Positions 11,361-59,465 of a DNA stretch of 64,000 bases are shown here, one piece after another. The stretch's first letter is position 1, and each line of letters opens with the position of its first letter. This DNA is from Yuukianura sp. NJ FZ-2021 (taxonomy: Eukaryota): assembly GCA_046563655.1 (NCBI GenBank), contig CM102290.1, positions 3,224,001-3,288,000 on the forward strand. The letters run 5' to 3'. The notes under the pieces are model-generated. The model had not been told where the DNA came from, ran no database searches, and saw only the letters and a list, made by a program, of their open reading frames with translations. The translations under genes and the position numbers were made by a program.

Positions 11361-14300
11361 TTAAAAGGTTTTAAAGCTGTTAACACGTTTTTTTAAAAAA
11401 CTTTTCCGGCCTTTGCTTATTAGTATTAGGTAGCGAAACCTAACTTTACAGGCATGCGCGTGTGTGTCAATCTGTCTGGGTGTATGTATTGCTCTTGAAC
11501 CTTTTGTTTCAATAGTTGGCAAATTCCGCTTACTTTCAGGAGCATCTGTGACATCATACTTTACTTCTTCATCTGAGTCTATATCCGAAAATGAGGCCTG
11601 TTCTCCCGGAGGCGGACTAAGAGACACATTGCCTGGTGGACTACCAATACTGCTGCTACAAGTTGAGCCAACCCTTTGAAGTGGTGATGGGGGAATGGCT
11701 TTCATTGATGGGTGATTGGCGATCCTGTCGTGTTGAGCAACAAAGGCATGGAACATCGAAAAGCCATTACTGCCACTGTCTACATTTTCGACGTCTTCTG
11801 GAGGGATAAGATTGGAACAATAGATGTAATCAGTAGGGCTTGAAGAAATGTCATCGAAGATCGGAAACAGAGCTCCATCCGGAATACCTAGAATGGAATC
11901 TAATTCGTTGTAATCCTCGTCAGTTCCAGGGGACTGAGGAGCAGTAGAAATGAATTCAGGCCCATGTCTGTCTTGAATGATGCTCCCAGAGTCATTTCTC
12001 CCACTCAACTTCTCATCTTCCGTCAGCTTCGCATTCAGTAGTTCTGACAAACTTGGTCTTGGTTCCTCTGCCATATCGACTGACTTAGGTGATGACATTG
12101 GACTTTCTCCTGTTTCTGCGTCTGAGATGTTCTCGTATATTAGCTGGGATTCGTTGCATCTTTCTTCAACTTTGGTAGAGATAGGTGACGCTGGTGAGGA
12201 ATTATCCTCTGCTTTTGCGTAAGATATTTCCACAATTGTGTCACGTTCTGTTGTTCCCGCTTCGACCTTGGTCAACGCTGGTGACATTAATGGAGAAGTT
12301 TCTTTCGCTTCTGCATCGGGAGTCATATCAACTAATTTGCGATCACCAGCCTTTTCTAGTACATAAGCCGTCGACATAGGTGGCGCCGGTGCAGAAGCGT
12401 TCTCCACCATTTCAAGTTCTGGAAATGTTTCGCCTACTTCGGTTGACGACCTAAGAGGGACTTCAGCTTCTGCATCAGAAGCGTTTTCGATCATTTCAAG
12501 CGCTGGAAATTTATCAGCTGCTTCTGGTGGCGATGTAGGAGGGTCTTCAGCTTCATCATCAAAAGCGTTTTCATTCAGTTCAAGTTCGGGAAATTTCTCA
12601 TTTACCTCTGTTGGCGATGTAGGAGGGTCTTCAGCTTCATCATCAAAAGCGTTTTCATTCAGTTCAAGTTCGGGAAATTTCTCATTTACCTCTGTTGGCG
12701 ATGTAGGAGGGTCTTCAGCTTCTGCATCAGAATCATTTTCGATCATTTCAAGCTCTGGAAATTTATCAGCAACTTCTGGTGGCGATGTAGAAGGCTCTTC
12801 AGCTTCATTATGAAAAGCATTTTCCATCAGTTGAAGTTCGGGAAATCTCTCATTTACTTCTGATGGCGATCCAGTAGGGTCTTCCGCTTCTGCATCAGAG
12901 GTGTTTTCAATCGGATGACGTTGGGGAAATTTCTCATCTACTTCTGTTGGCGAGGAAGGAGAGTCTTCAGGTTCTGCATCAGAGGCGTTTTCAATCGGTT
13001 GACGTTGGGGAAATTTCTCATCTACTTCTGTTGGCGAGGAAGGAGAGTCTTCAGGTTCTGCATCAGAGGCGTTTTCAATCGGTTGACGTTGGGGAAATTT
13101 CTCATCTACTTCTATTGGCGAGGAAGGAGAGTCTTCAGCTTCTGCATCAGAAGCGTTCTCAATCATTTGAAGTCTGGGAAATCTCTCATCTATTTCTGTT
13201 GACGATCTAGGTGGGTCCCCTTCAGTTTCATCATCAGAAGCGTTTTCGACCATTTGTAGCACTGGAAATTTAACTTCTACTTCTGTTGGCAATCCAGTAG
13301 TGTCTTCAGTTTCATCATCAAAAGCGTGCTTAACCAATTGAAGTTTGGGAAATTCTTCATCTACTTGTGTTAGCGATCCAGTAGGGTCTTCCGCTTCATC
13401 ATCAGAAGCATGATCAATCAGTCGAACCTTGGAAACCTGCTCATCAATTTCTGTTGGCGATCTAGGGTTTTCAATTTCTGGAACAAAGGCAATGCTAGGT
13501 TTATGTAACCGAATTGTAATTCTACAACAGGTTGTCCAACAAGCTACCACGCCGGTAGGATTTCTGTATCTGGGGCCATGAAACTTTTTTCCAAGTTTTT
13601 TGGTCAAAATTTTCGAAAAAAAAATTTTTTTTTCGTTTTTTTTCACTTTTTATCATTTTTTTTAAGTTTTTTTTTTTTAAATTTTTTTTTCGAACAAGAT
13701 TCCTTAAAATTTATTCCGGCAGTTTAATATAGACACAACAGAACTGTATTATAAGTAATAAATTTCATCATATTTTATCATGTTTCAAACTTTCAAAATT
13801 AAAAAAAAAATTGGTATATATTCTAGTTGACCTCTGACCTCAAGGAGTGGTTGTAATGTCATAGTCCATAGGACAAAATTTATTTCCCTCATGATTCTGA
13901 ACAATTTTCATAAGGATCACTTTTGAGATTGTCAGGGGTGCCCATTTTATTTTCTGGACTTAGAAAATTTTCGTCCAAAATCGCAAAAATATGAGAAGGG
14001 GGGACCCTTGAGGTCAAAAATTTTTTTTGCTCCAAACGTTCCAAAAACTTTTGAGACATGATAAAAAGTGAAAAAACGAAAAAAAAAAAACTATCGAAAA
14101 TTTTGACCAAGAAACTTGGAAAAAAAGTTTCATGGCCCAAGAAACGGAAATCCAACCAGCACGCCATTGCTCCGAATGAATTGGTCCAGCGTTTTCTACT
14201 CAAGCGTTTTCGACTATTTCAAGCACGGGAAATTTACCTCCTACTTCTGTTGGCAATCCTTCAGTTTCATCATCAAAACCGTGCTTAACCAATTGAAGTT

Positions 14301-17287
14301 TGGGAAATTCTTCATCTACTTCTGTTACCGATCCAGTAGGGTCTTCCGCTTTATCATCAGAAGCGTCATCAATCAGTCGAACCTTTGGAAATTGCTCATC
14401 TACTTCTGTTGGCGATCCAGTAGTGTCTTCCGCTTCATCATCAGAAGCGTGATCAATCAGTGGATCTTTGGGCGATTGCTCATCTATTTCTGTTGGCGAT
14501 CCAGCAGGGTCTTCAATTTCTGGATCAAAAGCAATGTTAGGTTTAGGTAACCGAATTGTAATTCCTACAACAGGTTGTCCAACAAGCTAGCACGCCGGTT
14601 AGATTTCCGTTTCTGGGGCCATGAAACTTTTTTACAAGTCTTTTGGTCATAATTTTCGAAAAAAAATTTTTCTTTATATATGGGAAATCCAAAACAAAAG
14701 TCTCCAAACGTTCCAAAAACGTTTGAGACATGATATAGGTTTTCAATAATCTTGCTTCAAACAACTTTTGGCACCAATTCAGCACCAATTCCATTTGGAT
14801 TACATGCAAACAATTACCATAAAACGGAAGATTTAATATTTTCAAACAATTTTAAAACTTCGACTTATTGGACAACCTTCTGTAGAGAAAAAAAATATAT
14901 TTCTTTTTGTTGGTTTACGAACCTTCATCAGAAGCGCTCGCAATGGGTTGAAGTTCTGCAGCGTTCCTTCGCTGCGACAAGTATTCAGCGGCAGCTTCAT
15001 TTGCCAATTGTTTTGCAACTTCCTTTGGTTGATTATGAGTATTTTTAATGTGGCGATCGAGGTTGTCTTTACGCCTAAACGCCGTAGTGCAAATCCAGCA
15101 TTTAAATGGGCGTTCGCCTGAAATCATTCGAGAAAGTAGTTGCGTATCTGATGCGTAACAAGCGCTGATTGATTATAATACCAACGTTTGTTTTATGGGA
15201 TAACCAGAATTTATTACCAGAATGTATAACCATGTGACGACGGAGATCCTTGCTGTTTGAAAAAGCTCTTGAGCACTGATCACAGGCAAATGGACGTTCA
15301 CTGGAATGTGTCCTCAGGTGAAGATCTAGTGTCCATTTGAGTCCAAAGCTTTTCCCACAGTGAGTACACATAAAAGGACGTTCGCCTGTTTCATAAAATA
15401 AAAGTTTAAAAGTTAATTACTTCACTTCATTCAAAAATTCAATTTTCAACACTGTTCAATTTACCTGTGTGCGTTATAACATGCTTCTTGAGGTTCGTCA
15501 TCCCAGTAAATCGTTTGTCGCAGTAGTCACAGGAGAACGGACGTTCTCCAGTATGAATGAGAAGGTGAGAGCGCATGGCTTGAGTGTTGGCAAAACCGCG
15601 GCCGCACGTTGGGCAAACAAACGGTTTTTCACCAGTATGAGAGCGCATATGTCGTGTCACTTTTCCACGCTGATTAAAGCCTTTGCCGCACTTGGGACAA
15701 GTGTATGGCCGCTCTCCTATTACAAAAGTAATTTTACAAAAATTTCCATCTTAGCATCCAGAATTTTTAAAATTTTCAAAACATCCAAACTTAACCAACC
15801 CGTATGAGTTCGAATGTGGTATTCGAAATGGGATTTGGCAATGAATCCTTGGCCACACTCCTGACACTTGAAAGGTTTTCTCCCGTTTTGGCAAAATTCG
15901 TGGTATTTGATGTGCGCTTTCGTTTTAAATTTCTTCATACAAATTCCGCATTGATAAAGTAAGGGGTCGCCTGAAAATTAGCAAATTATGAAGAATGTTA
16001 AAAAACAAAGATTTTTTTCTGAAAAATCATAACCAAACTTACCACTAACGATGGAAATATGGTCGTAAATAGTCACAGGATTTCGCTTTTTCTTTGTTTT
16101 TCGTTCCGCATCACAACTTTCATTCGGTAAATGATTTTCTGGCGTATCGTCTAGTGCATCTTCCTCATGAATACCGTTAGTCTGAGAAGCATCTACGGAA
16201 TGAGACAGAGATGAGCTACTTGTCGTGGAGGATGTTCCAGGGGATGTTCCACCGTCGGGAGACAAACTCTTGGCAGGGGAATGCCGTTTCTTGACTGGAA
16301 GTTCCGGATGTGAGGATCTCGTAAAATCAGTCGGAGTTATCGTAACCGCAAATTGTTCCGGCGGAAGACTCTTCTTCTCGGGCAGCGTTCGGCCATTTTC
16401 AGCAGAACGCCTTGATTTTCGTTTGCTACAGCTATCCGGAGGAGGTGTGGGCGTGCTATGGTGAAATCCATTGGTTAGAGTAGATCCAAGACCAAGTCCT
16501 AGACACGCAGAACTGGAAATGGTTGAAGGGACATGATTTTCAGGAGGAGTGCGGATTTGGGAAGCGTAGGAAATTGGTGGTTGTGGGGGTGGGGGTGGAA
16601 GGACGGAGGGATGACGGAATCCATTGGTCGGAGCTGGCCGTCCATTCAAGCTCGGCGTAGAGGGGCGAAGAGGTGGGGCTGAAAAAGAAGTGGTTGAGCG
16701 GTGTCGGCTACTGCGCAGAACACGATCAGATTCCTGGGCAGGAGGAGGAGCTTTAACCCGACGACTGGCAGCTTGGTGACATTGTAAGCAACCGGACTGA
16801 TTTGTAATCAAGCACCTTCGACATTTGACATGTTTGCAACATCCTTCTTGAACTGGTTGTCCAGTACTGTTGATGAGGCTGAAGAGTTCAAAGCATTCTG
16901 GACAAGTTGCAGTACCTGTCCAAATTTCAAACAATATATGATCTTAATGTTGCATAGTTTATCTAAAAAATATTCAGTCAAAACTTTCTCCATGTAACAC
17001 CAGTTCCATTGTTTGACAAAAGGAACAACTTTTTTGTTTCATGGTCCCAACATTTTTAGAAATTGAAAAAAAGTTTTCGGCTGAGGCCGCTTCTATATTT
17101 TTTTAAACCGCTTGGCAATGGCTTAAAAAAAACCTTGAGAAAACTTACCGTAGAGATCAATGAAGTATCTCCTCTCCGCTTGCGCGTCTCTCACGACGAC
17201 ATTTTGTTGAGATGTCGCCTGTTGCATCTGCGAATGGAGACCGGATGCTTCCCTCACATTTTGTCCAGTCACTGGCTTCCGGGCCAT
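11361..17287 (-). CDS. RING-finger + 8 C2H2-type zinc-finger protein with a C-terminal acidic 28-aa tandem-repeat region
   Basis: Exons 17287-17149, 16915-16043, 15970-15800, 15716-15465, 15385-15218, 15117-14923, 14519-14238 and 13477-11361 all join in phase 1. RING-like CPEC...CCKHVKCRRC...CLQC. Fingers have TGEKP/TGERP linkers; the first is C2HC. The 3' end is uncertain (stop at 11361 or a donor near 11450). Confidence 0.82.
12390..13477 (-). repeat. Coding tandem repeat, 13 units of 84 bp (28 aa, EAEDPPTSPTEVDEKFPELxxIENASDA)
   Basis: Units are visible in both DNA and translation, with some adjacent units near-identical. About 3 more units at 14519-14238. Confidence 0.95.
13525..14165. 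mobile_element. Longer, right-truncated copy of the TA-flanked MITE, with internal inverted repeats of about 110 bp
   Basis: Begins TA-CAACAGGTTGTCCAACAAG like the 14568 copy. 13548-13657 is an imperfect reverse complement of 14058-14162. Confidence 0.65.
14568..14882. mobile_element. Tc1/mariner-like MITE in an intron of the zinc-finger gene
   Basis: TA on both flanks. Imperfect TIRs CAACAGGTTGTCCAACAAG and CTTATTGGACAACCTTCTG. Confidence 0.7.
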
Positions 17288-53600: not shown

Positions 53601-55655
53601 CTTTTTCGATTTTTGCAACTTTTCATTTTAGAGCATCCTAGTCGTTTTCAATTCTACATACGAATTGCTACCAATTTTTGGGATTGGTACCATTTTTTGT
53701 TTTTTTCGTATTTTTTGTCAACAACTGAGGTAGTACTCAACCTGTTAAAGAAAATTAACTTTTTGTTGTCAAGGAACCTTGTAAAAACCTATTGTCTGAA
53801 TTTTTGAAGCATTCTTGTTTGAATTTTTGAAGAATTCAAAACACCTTGGATTCGGTGTCCCGATGACATTCGGATTGACCTGCAACCAAATCAAAATTTG
53901 GCTTATGTAATAATTCCACAACCACAAACCAACGTTGATTGGTGGAGGTAAGAAGTTTGAATTGAAAATTTCAAAATTTCAGAAAATTTTGATTTAATTT
54001 TTATCATCTTGACGTTAGGCAAGTGAGCGCAGAACCTTCCTGGGCAAAAGGTCTGGAGACTGAAATTGGACCTGGAAAGCAGCGTATAACTTTCAGAGCT
54101 AGAACTTCAGCTCCGTTCAACAATACTGCCGAATGTGCCTTTACGCTGGAAGTCAGAGGTTGAACAATTTTTATAAAAAGCAGACAAATTTTTATTCAAA
54201 ATCTCAATTTTTGAAACTTTTTATGAATGCTAGATATGGATCCACCACGAGTCAGAGAATGTCCAGAATCGCTCACTCTTCGGCTCAATCCAGGTCAAAG
54301 TGCCCGCACTGTGACCTGGTTGGAACCCCATTTCAGTGACAACGTTCGAATTTCCTCAATGAAACAATCTCATCATCCAGGAACAATTCTCACCCTCGGA
54401 GAGCATCTCGTCAATTACGAAGCCAAAGATCCAAGTGACAATGTCGCCCGCTGCTTCTTCACTATCACGATTCTGCCGCGTAAGTTCAAATTTGAATCAG
54501 ATCCAAAGTTACCAAGGCAGAGAAGCGAATCCACCCATGCCTCATAAAATTTGGTCCATTGCACAAGGAATTCCATCCGGGAAATTCATTCTCATTTTGT
54601 TAAAACAGAAAATGATTTATTCAATACAAGTCTTGAACTTCCGTTTTTGTGTAGTAGAAATTGGAACATTTCAAATTATGAAAAAAATTTCAAAACAAAA
54701 TTGCATTTTTTTCCAATTTTGCCAATTTTTTCAGCAGCGTCAAGTTCATACAATGGAAACGGATTCCACACGACGCATCTTCGGAAGCCACTGAGCGAAG
54801 GCGTCACTGCCCCCACGACCACAACGTCCACGACCTCTGGAAGGCCCGAAGTCCATTCGGTCATGCGCAATGTCGTTTGCTACGTTGGGAAAAAAGGACG
54901 TCGAATTGTGTTTCTATCGGTAAGAGATTTTAAAATTTTCAACTTTTTTTCAAAAACGATTTTATTTACATTCATAGCTGGCGTTTTCTGCGTTTCAGCG
55001 TGTCATCCCCCGCGGCTGTTCCGAAATGACAATGGATATGATTGGTGAACCGACGGGTCCTGGATCCTACAATACTTTGAACACGATTAGTCAAAATTCT
55101 GCTGAAAACATGGCCACGAGTCAAATCTCGAGTGTTAGTTACACTTCTCATGACACGCCCCAGAGTGCATCTGCTTTTGGCCAGGCTCTGTCCAACGGTC
55201 GCAACACAAATCGAATGGTCCACAGCAGCAGTTCTGTTACCAATGGAGCTCATGGCACAAACTCCAAGTCATCCAGCTATGCCATTGCCGTGTCATCCTC
55301 TTCCAGGAACTTTGAAATCCCATTTCTAACGGACAAGCAAGTCTACGAAGAAGATGACCTCATACCACCCACAAATCTTCCTCAGAGGTCATCCGCTGGT
55401 GCAGGAGAGGTCAATCAACCACTAGGTAGTGCCACTAGCACTGTAAAGAGAGGCAGAGGACGACCAATGAACGGTGGGGGACAACGGCGTCAGAGGCTCC
55501 CGGGAAGTGTTGACCTCAGGGCTGGAGGTCACCGTCGTCCTGCTGCAGGAAACGACCAAGATCAGGATCCAACTACACCTCCGGTTGAAAATAAAAAGTA
55601 TTTTCGCCATTTCAATTCATGGGGAACCACAAATGGACTACTTCGGGGAGACTGA
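47652..55655 (+). CDS. Large secreted extracellular-matrix protein: signal peptide, acidic/charged helix, calcium-binding EGF domains, mucin-like T/P tracts, Sushi (CCP) and two HYR-like domains; recalled as Drosophila CG7526-like
   Basis: About 13 exons in frame from [23 protein letters not shown]. cbEGF motifs [20 protein letters not shown] and [27 protein letters not shown]. Sushi [14 protein letters not shown]...[50 protein letters not shown]. Confidence 0.88.
52834..53100 (+). repeat. Dispersed copy of the 318-bp repeat, filling almost a whole intron
   Basis: Shares CAAAATTTGACGAAAAACTTGATGTTC, CGCGAAGAGATTAGGTCTCTAT and CTGAATTCACAAAAATAT with 6225-6480. Confidence 0.9.
53551..53781. 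mobile_element. MITE with 8-bp TSD, copy 2 (inverted relative to copy 1), intronic
   Basis: Termini CAAGGTTC...GAACCTTG, exact TSD TAAAAACC (53543-50 and 53782-89). Confidence 0.9.
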
Positions 55656-56803
55656 ATGAAAATTTCGTCTTCTGTTCAAGGAACTAAAAAGTAGAAAATG
55701 GGTTTCGTTTCGACAATTTTGTTCAATTTTCAAAATGGTCAAAAAAAGTTACTGGAAATCAAAAACTGGAGTTTAGTTTAGTCTCTAACTAATCTTTTTC
55801 TGTTTAAAAACCACTTTTGTTACTCTACAATTTAGAAATCTATTAAAAGACTAATAAAAGAAATTGGAGAGGTCTGATTTACCAAATAAATCATCACTGT
55901 ACAATTCCGGAGTATTTGCAATTTGCAAAATTTGAAAATTTTTTTTGCAACAATTTGCAAAGTAATAATGGCCAGAAGTGTTTTAATTGTAAACAATTTC
56001 TACTTTTAATGGTTCTCGAACCATTAAAAATTTAACACGCCTGATTGAATTTCATTGCCCATTGTTATACCCTTGATTTCAATATTTTTTGCCAAACTCA
56101 ATTTAGCACACTGCTGCAGTTAAATTGAGTTTGGCAGGAATTTGACGCTGTAAAGCATGAAGCTGCTGCCAACTTGAAAACGTCCTGTACTAACACTTTC
56201 CCTCTGGCATTTTCCGTACCCTGTTAATATTTTGGCCATGAAAAGTAAGAGTAGAAGGGGTTGATGGCATTATAACAATGGCTTGACACCTACCTGTATC
56301 CACTTGTAAAAGACCAGAACATAACTTAGGGTGAGGCACATCTCCCCTCCTATTGTTTGTTACAAGATGCGTTTTAGCACTAGCACAGAACAAATCCAAA
56401 TTGTTGATTTTCATTCATTTCATGACTCAGTTCCAACTCCAACGGTACAGACACACCTTAGTTGAGCAAATTTTCTGGAGAAAGTCCAAGGTAACAGTCC
56501 AAGTCAAAACAAAAGTCCAACCAACAGGTAAGACACAAAAGTTACAAAGTTAGTGTAAGTTATTTTAATTTTGCCCAAGCAAGGTTGTTTGACGCTAATT
56601 CTTCACCAATGTTGACGAATCTTTCAATTTTTCCAATCCAATTTTGAAGAAAGCTTCTCCAATGTTATGTTTCTACTGAAAAAAGTTAAAGTCTGACTTT
56701 TAGTATCAATTTAGTTAATTCAATTGTTATGTTTTAGTAAGTTACTTCAAAATTGTGTATTTACAATGGTGTTACGTTGTTCCAGTAGTTCCGAAAATGC
56801 AAA

Positions 56804-57228
56804 ATGTCCATTTTGGAGGATAACGACGCCTGGGAAGAGAATCCGTACTTCAAGGAACACGGAGACGAGTGGTCCGACTATACTGCCTTCTACGTCGCAA
56901 TTACGTTTTGTACTCTCCTGGGAGTGTCTATCATAGTACTCAACTTGGTACTGTGCTGCTGCTCGCCATATAAACAGTACTGGCGAAGTCCGGATACTGG
57001 CAACAGGTAAAACGTTTTCAGTTTCTACTTCTTCTGGTTTATGACTTGTTTCAGATTCTGAAAATATTGAAAAAGTATATAAGGAATAAGCGTCCTTTAC
57101 ACAATTTTTGAATAAATATTTTCAGATTAATTTTACCGATTTGGATCCGTAACCCGGGAAAGCAGCCTCCGTTGACTCTGCAACCAGAACTGGCTGGCGT
57201 TCACGTTTCTGCTGACATCGAACATTGA
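56804..57228 (+). CDS. wrm1: Small single-pass membrane protein, 101 aa (wuermchen-1-like)
   Basis: Exons 56804-57006 and 57126-57228. AWEENPYF..DYTAFYVAITFCTLLGVSIIVLNLVLCCCS..YW...TGNRLILP. The ORF is well supported; the name is from recalled similarity and arrangement, not a search. Confidence 0.72.
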
Positions 57229-57257
57229 AAATAGAATATTGTACTTTTAGCAGCACA

Positions 57258-57494
57258 ATGTTTCACGTGTACTGGCCAGCACTTGCTGTTCTGACGATGA
57301 TTGTCATCCTTACTGTCATGCTAATCCTCATCTACGGCGACAGAGTTTGCAAGAGGGTCAAATCCCGGACGGACAACATTTGGCAACGGAGGTCAGTCAT
57401 CCAACAGGAACAGCTCGTTGCTCAGCAACGCCAACTTCAGTCCATGGAACTACGCAAACAAAGTGCATCCTACGGACATGAAATTGAACTTTAA
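57258..57494 (+). CDS. wrm2: Small single-pass membrane protein, 78 aa (wuermchen-2-like)
   Basis: MFHVYWPALAVLTMIVILTVMLILIYGDRVCKR..., starting 29 nt after the ORF1 stop. Name is from recall. Confidence 0.68.
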   Translation: MFHVYWPALAVLTMIVILTVMLILIYGDRVCKRVKSRTDNIWQRRSVIQQEQLVAQQRQLQSMELRKQSASYGHEIEL

Positions 57495-59465
57495 CTTATA
57501 AAAACATGGGCATATTAATTAAATTTATACAATTTAACATACTTTTTAACTAACTTGCTAACCATAACTTAACAGGTCTAACACTATGAGGTCAGAGCTT
57601 TAAAAAATTTCTGAGGGGAAGAACTAATGTTAACATCATGACCTCAACATATTTTTGATACGATTGTCATATTCCGGATCCCGTTGACCTAGCTTCTTAT
57701 TCTCCATTTTTCAAAACTTTCCGAAAATTTTTGTTGTTACTGATTAGTACTTACAATTAGTTTTATAAAACAAACTTTTTATACAGTGACATTATGCTTG
57801 ATGCCAAAAATTTCTGAAAATTGTTCCGTCCAATTTTACAACTCAACCTGGGCTCTCTAAATCGTTAGCACAAAATTGCTATTCTTAAAAATAAATAAAT
57901 TTTAGTAACTTAAAAAAATAAGGAAACCTGAAAACAAAAAAAGTATTTTTGACTTCAGTTTTATTATTTTTTTACGACATTTTTCGTATTTAATACAGAA
58001 GTTATCCACATGAAGGAATATTTCATTTGACCTTTATTTCTTTTCCTGCTGATATTTTTCTACCAAATTTTAAATCGGGGTTTCAAATTAAAAGTTTCTT
58101 TACTGTTTATGCTTGGAAGTCCATTTTAAGAGGAAATTGCAATTTTTGAAACGAATTCTCACAACTACTTCCAACCAACCAAAAAACAAATCCATTAGAA
58201 TTCCTAAAATGTTTTTTCGGTAGGAGTATTTGTTACTACTTCTGGACTTGGAACTTTAAAAAATTAAGAAAAAGAAATTTTGAAAATAGAAAGTTTCAGT
58301 AATAACCATGATCTTTCAGCCGTAAAAGTGTTTTTTGCCACAACTGCTGCGGCTACTTACTTTAGTATGTTGGATTTTCACTGGTTCCACGCCTTGTTTC
58401 CTTAAAATAAAATTCCCAACCCTGGACCTCCAACAGTTTTTAACAAATTTTCGAATTTCGATAGGACACCGCAATACCCAACTACAAAAGTCTGCGAATG
58501 TTCCAAAAAGTAATCTCGCGCATTCTCAACTAACTTTTCATTTTTTGAATTAAGTCCACAAAACAAAACTAAATATTCCTTATGATCACGTGTTTTTCTC
58601 CATTGGAAGTTAGTAACGCCACTTACTTGGCGCTAAATTAGAAATTATTTTTGGACTCAACTTCAATGTTCGGAAAGTGGGAGACGTTCTTTAGATTACC
58701 ATATTAAATATTATCGGCGGAAACAAGCAAAAACGTTTTTACGAAAAATAAGAGATCACTTTTACGTTGCAACTAATAACGTCTCTTATAAAAAACAAAC
58801 AGGTCACAGAGTTCTAGAGTTTTAGCTTTTTCTTTTTGTTAGAAGTTAATCCTCCCATGTACGCGCATCTTCTAGGTCAAAGGTGAGAGACGGGCCCTTT
58901 AGTAGAAGAAAACAGAACGACAGTCTTTTGGTCAACCTTAATATTTCACTTAAGTGAAACCATTTCCGTAAATCCCCCGTTTCACAATAAGTACTCTCGA
59001 ATTCGTTCCCTCCTCCAGTTTCAGCAAGTATTTCTAAATTAAGTTATATTTTGTGTGCTATCAAAACGGATTGCCCCAATACACAATGATCACCTATCCA
59101 TTGTATCACATGGTGTTCATATGCCAAGAATCTAACGAGCACAACCTCCATCTTTGGCAACAGAACAAATGTGATGTACAAAACTTTGGAAAACAACGCC
59201 CTCAAGTTATGTCTTTACCTCCGCTTCTATGGCCTGGAGAAAGTTTCTGACTAAATCAGAAACTTTCTTCAGCTCAACACTTTGGGAAACAAATTGACGA
59301 GTTGTTGGACACACAAGATTAATGTTTAGATGCAACCTTAGGGTTCCTTAGAACGCAATCTCGCTATGTTTTAGACGGTACACGACCGTTTGGTTTAGCC
59401 TTTAGTCAGTGTAGTATTCTGAATCTGAGGGAATGCAGGTTATTAACTGTGTGGCAGTCGTCTTA

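Follow-up and report, generated by a model that had tools for sequence, protein, structure and literature searches.

The 64,000-nucleotide stretch of DNA analysed here (the window; Yuukianura sp. NJ FZ-2021, contig CM102290.1, positions 3,224,001 to 3,288,000 of the forward strand) contains a locus which we read, with a probability of about 65%, as a bicistronic gene of the würmchen type in an arthropod-like animal. It would encode a Wrm1-family protein from a first open reading frame (ORF1) and a second membrane microprotein from a downstream frame (ORF2), with ORF2 reached by scanning and the ribosomes divided between the two at a pair of AUG codons. The gene model, the homology of both ORFs to relatives, the conserved layout and the conserved avoidance of AUG in the first cistron are directly supported by the analysis.

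All features of the locus lie on the forward strand, and positions are those of the window. The first exon of ORF1 (56804..57006) opens with an AUG in the context caaaATGt and ends at the donor CAG/GTAAAA. An intron of 119 nucleotides (nt; 57007..57125, GT..AG, acceptor tttcag) splits a codon after its second base, and the second exon (57126..57228) closes with a TGA at 57226-57228, giving a spliced product of 101 amino acids (aa). ORF2 (57258..57494, 78 aa, start context cacaATGt) follows after an intercistronic spacer of 29 nt (57229..57257) that holds neither an ATG nor a poly(A) signal. An upstream open reading frame (uORF) of eight codons (56797..56823, context gaaaATGc) is out of frame with ORF1; it starts 7 nt 5' of the ORF1 AUG at 56804 and terminates with a TAA (56821-56823) whose last base lies 17 nt 3' of the same AUG. 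A preliminary description of the locus had noted the uORF, both ORFs and the 29-nt spacing, all of which were confirmed by direct reading and by script, and the spliced structure that it gave to ORF1 is corroborated by relatives which read through the junction into the motif encoded by exon 2.

Each of the two products carries a single hydrophobic segment of 19 aa (mean Kyte-Doolittle hydropathy 2.5 for ORF1 and 2.9 for ORF2), with a basic flank after this transmembrane (TM) segment. Both are small predicted TM proteins and match the würmchen products in this trait. The positive-inside rule, applied to the two segments, suggests that both proteins would be oriented with the N-terminus out and the C-terminus in.

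Both cistrons belong to conserved protein families

A word-based protein search with ORF1 exon 1 as the single query returned no matches. An exhaustive phmmer search with the same 68 residues retrieved 82 relatives at E<=1e-3 and 27 at E<=1e-10, and all of the named proteins among the 82 are from insects, which we take to be beetles, midges, a wasp, stingless bees, aphids, a mealybug, mayflies and butterflies or moths. Two of the relatives bear the NCBI name 'uncharacterized protein wrm1' (P0054 from Planococcus citri, E 7.3e-8; P0059 from Cloeon dipterum, E 1.5e-7). The link to würmchen that the preliminary description had drawn is upheld in this way for ORF1, whose membership of the Wrm1 family is supported by its sequence, indirectly, through the insect proteins that NCBI names wrm1.

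In the alignment of the family, the N-terminal part is conserved, and after it come the TM segment, a juxtamembrane patch rich in C, the YW..TGN motif and finally the motif encoded by exon 2. By alignment and hydropathy, exon 1 of the window locus supplies an acidic N-terminus, the TM segment, the residues CCC and the YW..TGN motif, and exon 2 supplies the conserved P.W...P..QPPL motif. The long insect forms of Wrm1 continue into an acidic tail ending ...ESDI or ...ESEI, unlike the window protein and its closest relatives, which are short forms lacking this tail. The ends of the long tails (-S-D-I, -S-E-I) presumably resemble the S/T-x-hydrophobic class of PDZ-ligand motifs.

Pfam yielded no family for ORF1. 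The weak touch of Commissureless in 4 of 26 Wrm1 relatives (best E 0.0028) was dismissed as a match of single-TM composition, and the SMIM5/18/22 assignment in the ESM Atlas (0.92, among generic small-TM clusters) is a lead without Pfam confirmation. Many public gene models of the Wrm1 family are wrong after ..TGN(R), where they run into the intron and acquire unrelated tails (for example P0001, P0002, P0005 and P0010), and others carry spurious N-terminal extensions (for example P0024, P0035 and P0046).

ORF2, when used as a single query, gave no matches in the word-based protein search either. A profile made from the ORF2 sequence together with the corresponding ORF2s of two related loci, described below, recovered 17 relatives at E<1e-5. 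An MF..YWP N-terminus followed by a TM segment is common to all members, and the window protein continues from there into a basic, Q-rich tail with the C-terminus ...YGHEIEL. The family falls into two subtypes, one of 71-78 aa ending ...YGHEIEV and the other of 107-125 aa ending ...SMSPEGRREFEI, which co-vary with those of the first cistron such that ORF1 proteins of the MS.. type are paired with ORF2 proteins of the ...YGHEIEV type and those of the MGNQ type with the ...SMSPEGRREFEI type. A gene name was found on none of the 22 profile matches and on none of the cluster members listed (NCBI, UniRef and other sources). By these comparisons ORF2 is a conserved protein family without annotation, which suggests that the second cistron is systematically missed by annotation pipelines. 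It may be regarded as the positional counterpart of Wrm2, with which it agrees in position and in single-TM architecture only.

The Pfam family Orthoreo_P10 scored 19 bits with ORF2 against a cut-off of 21.4 and was dismissed as a match of single-TM composition; the ESM Atlas clusters for ORF2, all below 0.9 and of generic small-TM type, are leads without Pfam confirmation. We take the C-termini of the ORF2 family (-I-E-V, -F-E-I) to resemble hydrophobic-x-hydrophobic PDZ-ligand motifs.

The bicistronic layout recurs in diverged loci

Three related loci on metagenome contigs (L001, L002 and L003) came from a scan with a four-sequence alignment, and in all three an ORF2 lies directly 3' of ORF1. 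Exon 1 of L001 is 76% identical to that of the window locus, with the intron in the same position, a spacer of 60 nt and an ORF2 of 74 aa; the two loci are also syntenic, the sequence upstream of L001 matching the end of the window's upstream gene. L002 and L003 form a more distant subfamily. In L002, ORF1 and ORF2 comprise three exons each, the intron position of the window locus is kept and the spacer measures 57 nt, while L003 is intronless and has a spacer of 29 nt. The four spacers thus span 29-60 nt; all are AUG-free, and their sequence is not conserved. In the distant subfamily ORF1 starts MGNQ... (at 2830 in L002 and at 124 in L003), which we take to resemble an N-myristoylation consensus, an odd feature for an N-terminus predicted to face outward.

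Identity at four-fold sites is random-like, with 15 of 49 sites identical between the window locus and L001 and 11 of 45 between L002 and L003. These sites are saturated, and the four loci can therefore be treated as near-independent trials. The bicistronic layout and the AUG-free first cistron are present in four of four loci, which bears out the deep conservation that the preliminary description had supposed. A gene of the Wrm1 family has kept its downstream microprotein outside the insects with named proteins, and the two-protein layout of würmchen is no oddity of Drosophila.

The L003 contig (1-1274) is without all five of the introns seen in L002, two in ORF1, two in ORF2 and one in the next gene, and its 1274 nt carry ORF1, ORF2 and the start of that next gene; it is either derived from cDNA or from an intron-poor genome. 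Its use as proof of a single mRNA was set aside, since the contig also enters the next gene. A further Wrm1 relative of 100 aa (P0003) and a further ORF2 relative of 90 aa (P0110) each come from a JGI contig of 1379 nt, which is probably one and the same and would then be a candidate fifth bicistronic locus.

AUG codons are avoided between the two starts

Across the 332 nt of spliced sequence between the ORF1 and ORF2 start codons of the window locus there is no ATG in any frame, compared with 5.4 expected from base composition and 4.9 from a dinucleotide model. These values agree with the ATG-free tract of roughly 330 nt, with about five expected by chance, that had been described previously. 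The probability of finding none was about 0.001 in 20,000 dinucleotide-preserving shuffles and 0.016 when the synonymous codons of ORF1 itself were permuted. One ATG does occur in the intron, and four lie inside ORF2 beyond its start.

The same depletion was found on checking the related loci, none of which has an ATG between the two starts, so that the tract (317-360 nt) is empty in four of four loci where 4.0-4.9 would be expected in each. Shuffling gave probabilities of 0.0012, 0.0038, 0.0046 and 0.0037 for the individual loci and about 1e-10 jointly; with the Met-less protein held fixed and its synonymous codons redrawn, the joint probability across the four loci is about 3e-5. ATG is the sole trinucleotide missing from all four inter-start tracts, whereas its complement CAT occurs 5-8 times per locus, and the ORF2s of the four loci contain 4-5 internal ATGs each.

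The protein families show a corresponding difference in methionine (Met). Beyond the start codon, Met accounts for 23 of 5216 residues (0.4%) in 82 exon-1-equivalent segments, some of these being the true starts of over-extended models, and 12 full-length members of the Wrm1 family have 6 among 1655 residues. In 17 ORF2-family proteins the figure is 55 of 1542 residues (3.6%), making Met about tenfold commoner there than in the Wrm1 family. The low Met content extends the in-frame part of the AUG-avoidance signature to named insects.

We interpret this pattern as a purge of AUGs from all frames between the two starts, because 40S subunits would have to scan cistron 1 in order to reach ORF2, and we consider it highly likely that ORF2 is reached by scanning through the AUG-free ORF1. 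A separate mRNA, an IRES (internal ribosome entry site) or reinitiation after ORF1 needs no purge of this kind, and the AUG-free tract therefore argues against all three. Both cistrons very probably lie on a single mRNA, on the basis of the purge in all four loci, of a spacer free of poly(A) signals and of the presence of both ORFs on the intronless L003, ambiguous though the nature of that contig is; the transcription start and the presence of the uORF start codon (uATG) in the mRNA we likewise infer. Removal of AUG from a first cistron by selection in four independent lineages provides a signature, readable from sequence only, with which bicistronic animal genes might be found or validated.

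Start-codon context and the upstream open reading frame

The nucleotide at position -3 of the ORF1 AUG is A, G, A and A in the four loci, a purine in every case, and +4 is G in two of the four. The form caaaATG, as seen at ORF1 of the window locus, is the one called optimal in the treatment of start contexts in the sloth paper (PMC9681215). The weak start context at cistron 1 that is typical of dicistronic mRNAs with leaky scanning is found in none of the four loci.

A uATG stands at exactly -7 in both the window locus and L001, with an A at its own -3 position, and opens uORFs of eight and seven codons, respectively. The block GAA[A/G]ATGC...ATGTC is the sole conserved piece of the 5' flank of these two loci; the remainder is unalignable and the uORF peptides differ. 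The window locus has an acceptor-like ttgttccag (56776..56784), recognised by its sequence, which ends 12 nt 5' of the uORF ATG, and L001 has a similar ttccag 28 nt 5' of its uATG. With the uATG located 3' of an acceptor-like sequence in both loci, it is therefore expected in the mRNA irrespective of whether there is an intron in the 5' untranslated region (5'-UTR). If ttgttccag does serve as an acceptor, the ATGs at 56609-56766 would consequently be intronic.

We envisage one capped mRNA with ORF1 and, 29 nt behind it, ORF2, along which 40S subunits would scan from the 5' end through ORF1 to ORF2, and on which the two AUGs spaced by 7 nt would most likely determine the split of ribosomes. A start at the ORF1 AUG would produce Wrm1. 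A start at the uAUG would lead to the translation of eight codons and to termination 17 nt past the ORF1 AUG, after which the ribosomes would rescan about 315 AUG-free nt and reinitiate at ORF2, and ribosomes leaking past both AUGs would add to the output of ORF2. The strong context of the ORF1 AUG implies that simple leakiness should be low and that a diverting uORF would therefore help.

The uORF mechanism had been put forward in the preliminary description; it is plausible and receives some comparative support from the uATG at -7 in L001. That the uORF diverts ribosomes to a material extent is nonetheless a possibility to which we give slightly less than even weight. More tentative still is the idea of a start-codon fork, that is, a conserved cellular uORF whose only job would be to carry ribosomes past the Wrm1 AUG to ORF2, fixing the stoichiometry of the two proteins in the mRNA itself. 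If such a fork were real, the design of ORF35/36 in KSHV (Kaposi's sarcoma-associated herpesvirus; see below) would exist in an animal gene and would be old enough to be common to species whose synonymous sites are saturated. A diverting uORF at -7 would, if confirmed, match in a cellular gene a mechanism whose demonstrations have so far come from viruses, and would offer a simple handle on the ratio of two septate-junction-related membrane proteins.

Alternative routes to the second cistron

Several observations weigh against the reading given above. The overlapping uORF is documented in two of the four loci alone, both from one subfamily. The only upstream ATG in L002 and L003 opens a uORF of five or three codons whose end lies 13-15 nt 5' of the ORF1 AUG, and this ATG may be intronic, because it lies just 5' of an acceptor-like cccctag or acctag. 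The AUG-free tract fits leaky scanning equally well as reinitiation after the uORF. When the codons of each related ORF1 were permuted among themselves, the probability of finding no ATG was 0.30 in L001, 0.24 in L003 and 0.40 in L002; in these three loci the signal is mainly one of Met absence and codon choice, with no clear-cut out-of-frame purge. ATG-free gaps of at least 332 nt number six on the forward strand of the window and eight on the reverse strand. A tandem acceptor-like sequence, TTTTAG/CAG (57245..57253), of the NAGNAG type, is situated 5-8 nt 5' of ORF2, and both of its AGs are in the ORF2 frame from the exon-1 donor. Finally, any homology of ORF2 to Wrm2 would be putative.

An equal fit to the AUG-free tract is offered by plain leaky scanning, according to which the uORF would be incidental or a mere damper of ORF1 and some 40S subunits would skip both AUGs and start at ORF2. 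The same has been proposed for Drosophila sloth1/2 (PMC9681215) and, in the account given by PMC11892635, for stoned and Snapin. An AUG-free first cistron is its hallmark; the tract is still AUG-free in L002 and L003, which are without an overlapping uORF; and were the transcription start near the AUG pair, the short leader would itself promote leakiness, as discussed in a section of PMC11892635. The ORF1 AUG is strong in all four loci, however, as opposed to weak or diverged in sloth1, stoned and Snapin, and the uATG has been kept at -7 in L001 despite the saturation of neutral sites. Leaky scanning is disfavoured as the only route, and we consider it unlikely as a full explanation.

The tandem acceptor, which is present as it had been described before, bears on the possibility that ORF2 is expressed from another form of RNA, by an internal promoter, by spliced-leader (SL) trans-splicing at TTTTAG/CAG or by splicing of the exon-1 donor to that site. 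The proximity of the site to ORF2 and the frame of its two AGs speak for such a form, although an in-frame position would arise by chance in one case out of three. Conservation of the acceptor was not seen: the spacer of L003 is without any AG and therefore has no splice or trans-splice acceptor, and the pyrimidine-preceded AGs of L001 are out of frame. Another RNA form also gives no reason for the purge of AUGs from ORF1 in four of four loci, and we hold it to be improbable. The product of the cis-spliced variant would be an in-frame fusion with two TM segments, joining the N-terminal half of Wrm1 to ORF2, to which we assign a low probability and in this species only. A conserved Wrm1-ORF2 fusion isoform was rejected, the in-frame acceptor being present in the window alone.

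The spacers, short and AUG-free as they are, would suit termination at ORF1 followed by reinitiation at ORF2, or an IRES within the spacer. Neither mode needs an AUG-free ORF1. Termination-reinitiation is most efficient after ORFs of a few codons, as stated in the relevant part of PMC11892635, compared with about 100 codons for ORF1, and the spacers, whose length and sequence are not conserved, have no Rfam match. We judge this pair of routes very improbable. An Rfam snoRNA match of 17 bits, against a cut-off of 35, was put down to chance.

The 14 ATG-free gaps of 332 nt or more, counted over both strands, are the argument for chance as the whole explanation, in which case the layout and the ATG-free tract would be functionless, or ORF2 would not be translated. 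The non-chance signal is the exact coincidence of the gap with cistron 1 and its recurrence in three of three relatives. The arrangement is seen in four of four loci with saturated neutral sites, at a joint probability between 3e-5 and 1e-10, and 17 relatives attest to the conservation of ORF2 at the protein level; an origin by chance is extremely improbable.

Comparison with known bicistronic systems

As summarised in a review, Drosophila würmchen is bicistronic and encodes Wrm1, a protein of 162 aa at septate junctions, and Wrm2, a TM microprotein of 57 aa (gene: Königsmann et al. 2020, Dev Biol). The window locus resembles it in having two small TM proteins in tandem in one gene, with ORF1 in the family that NCBI labels wrm1, and differs in the lengths of the products, ORF1 having 101 aa where the Wrm1 of the review has 162 and ORF2 having 78 aa where Wrm2 has 57. 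A search of the available literature for wrm1, wrm2 and würmchen turned up the review and a table entry, and nothing on wrm translation, a subject that the primary würmchen study may already cover.

Scanning with a division of ribosomes at the AUG pair, the reading we prefer, has a viral parallel in the ORF35-36-37 transcript of KSHV. In the description of that transcript in PMC3561293, an 11-codon uORF2 overlaps the strong AUG of ORF35, ribosomes scan 332 nt in which there is one Met codon before they reinitiate at ORF36, and the homologues of ORF35 are Met-poor. The two systems have in common a short uORF (11 codons in KSHV, eight in the predicted uORF here) over a strong cistron-1 AUG, a tract of about 330 nt that is nearly or fully AUG-free and a Met-poor first cistron. 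From the uORF stop to cistron 2 the KSHV type has an AUG-poor tract; all four of our loci are like it in this, with no ATG in any. In KSHV, a virus, there are two uORFs and the mechanism has been proven by experiment, whereas here a cellular animal gene has one uORF and a fully AUG-free tract, and is known from its sequence.

The Drosophila genes stoned and Snapin have been described as having AUG-deficient first cistrons (Wall et al. 2005, as cited in PMC11892635). Together with sloth1/2 (PMC9681215) and bicistronic loci of green algae (PMC11892635), these genes share with the window locus an AUG-deficient first cistron and a short spacer, and their ORF2s are accessed in a cap-dependent manner by the accounts in these two papers. 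They differ from it in the context of their ORF1 start, which is weak or diverged where ours is strong in four of four loci, and in that a start-overlapping uORF is present here.

The spacing of the AUG pair has a precedent in p69/p206 of TYMV (turnip yellow mosaic virus), where AUGs 7 nt apart compete in what has been termed 'initiation coupling' (Matsuda and Dreher 2006, cited by PMC5382211 and PMC8593136). AUGs 7 nt apart also compete for scanning complexes in reporter mRNAs, according to the passages on this subject in the same two papers. The viral and the window pair are alike in consisting of two out-of-frame AUGs at a distance of exactly 7 nt, each with an A at -3, and competition in place of a strict first-AUG rule would be a further shared trait. 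They are unlike in that both AUGs of the virus open long ORFs, whereas the first AUG here opens a uORF of eight codons.

In delayed reinitiation of the GCN4/ATF4 type, a short uORF causes ribosomes to bypass an AUG and to initiate further downstream, the bypassed ORF acts as a decoy and the output is regulated by stress. A short uORF and the bypass of an AUG would be shared with the locus described here, in which the bypassed ORF, unlike a decoy, encodes a conserved protein.

An AUG-free first cistron is already known from stoned, Snapin and green algae, and uORF-mediated bypass to a downstream cistron from KSHV and hepatitis B virus (HBV). What appear to be new are a wrm-type first cistron that is AUG-free across diverged lineages, an unannotated ORF2 family and a candidate for uORF bypass in a cellular gene.

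Ends of the transcript and other features of the window

A possible, if speculative, transcription start site is an initiator-like (Inr-like) TCAGTT at 56427..56432, the sole TCAGT[TC] in 55651-56800. Donors of the form AG/GTAA lie 3' of it, with exon ends at 56490 and 56527, and no ATG occurs in 56425-56528; a non-coding, ATG-free first exon extending from 56427 to the donor at 56490 or 56527 is plausible. At the other end of the gene, a poly(A)-like ATTAAA (57518..57523), 24 nt past the ORF2 stop, may direct polyadenylation, and a second poly(A)-like signal, AATAAA, is found at 57890.

A stop-free frame of 124 codons on the reverse strand (56747-57121) lies antisense to exon 1 and the intron of ORF1; nothing supports it, and the codon composition of ORF1 has probably produced it as a by-product.

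The window consists of animal DNA, and among the neighbouring genes in it are those for an EGF/Sushi/HYR protein, an ankyrin-plus-kinase protein, C2H2 zinc fingers and PAN3. A 762-codon open frame on the reverse strand (11361-13649) is built from numerous acidic repeats, each about 35 aa long (...ENASDAEAEDSPSSPTEVDEKFPQRQPI...), with a shorter copy nearby at 14200-14586. Low-complexity frames at 694-1528 and 2376-2672, also on the reverse strand, are made up of SYGAPP(Q)S repeats and GYSGGGGG repeats, which in our view presumably recall arthropod structural proteins of a cuticle or chorion-like kind.

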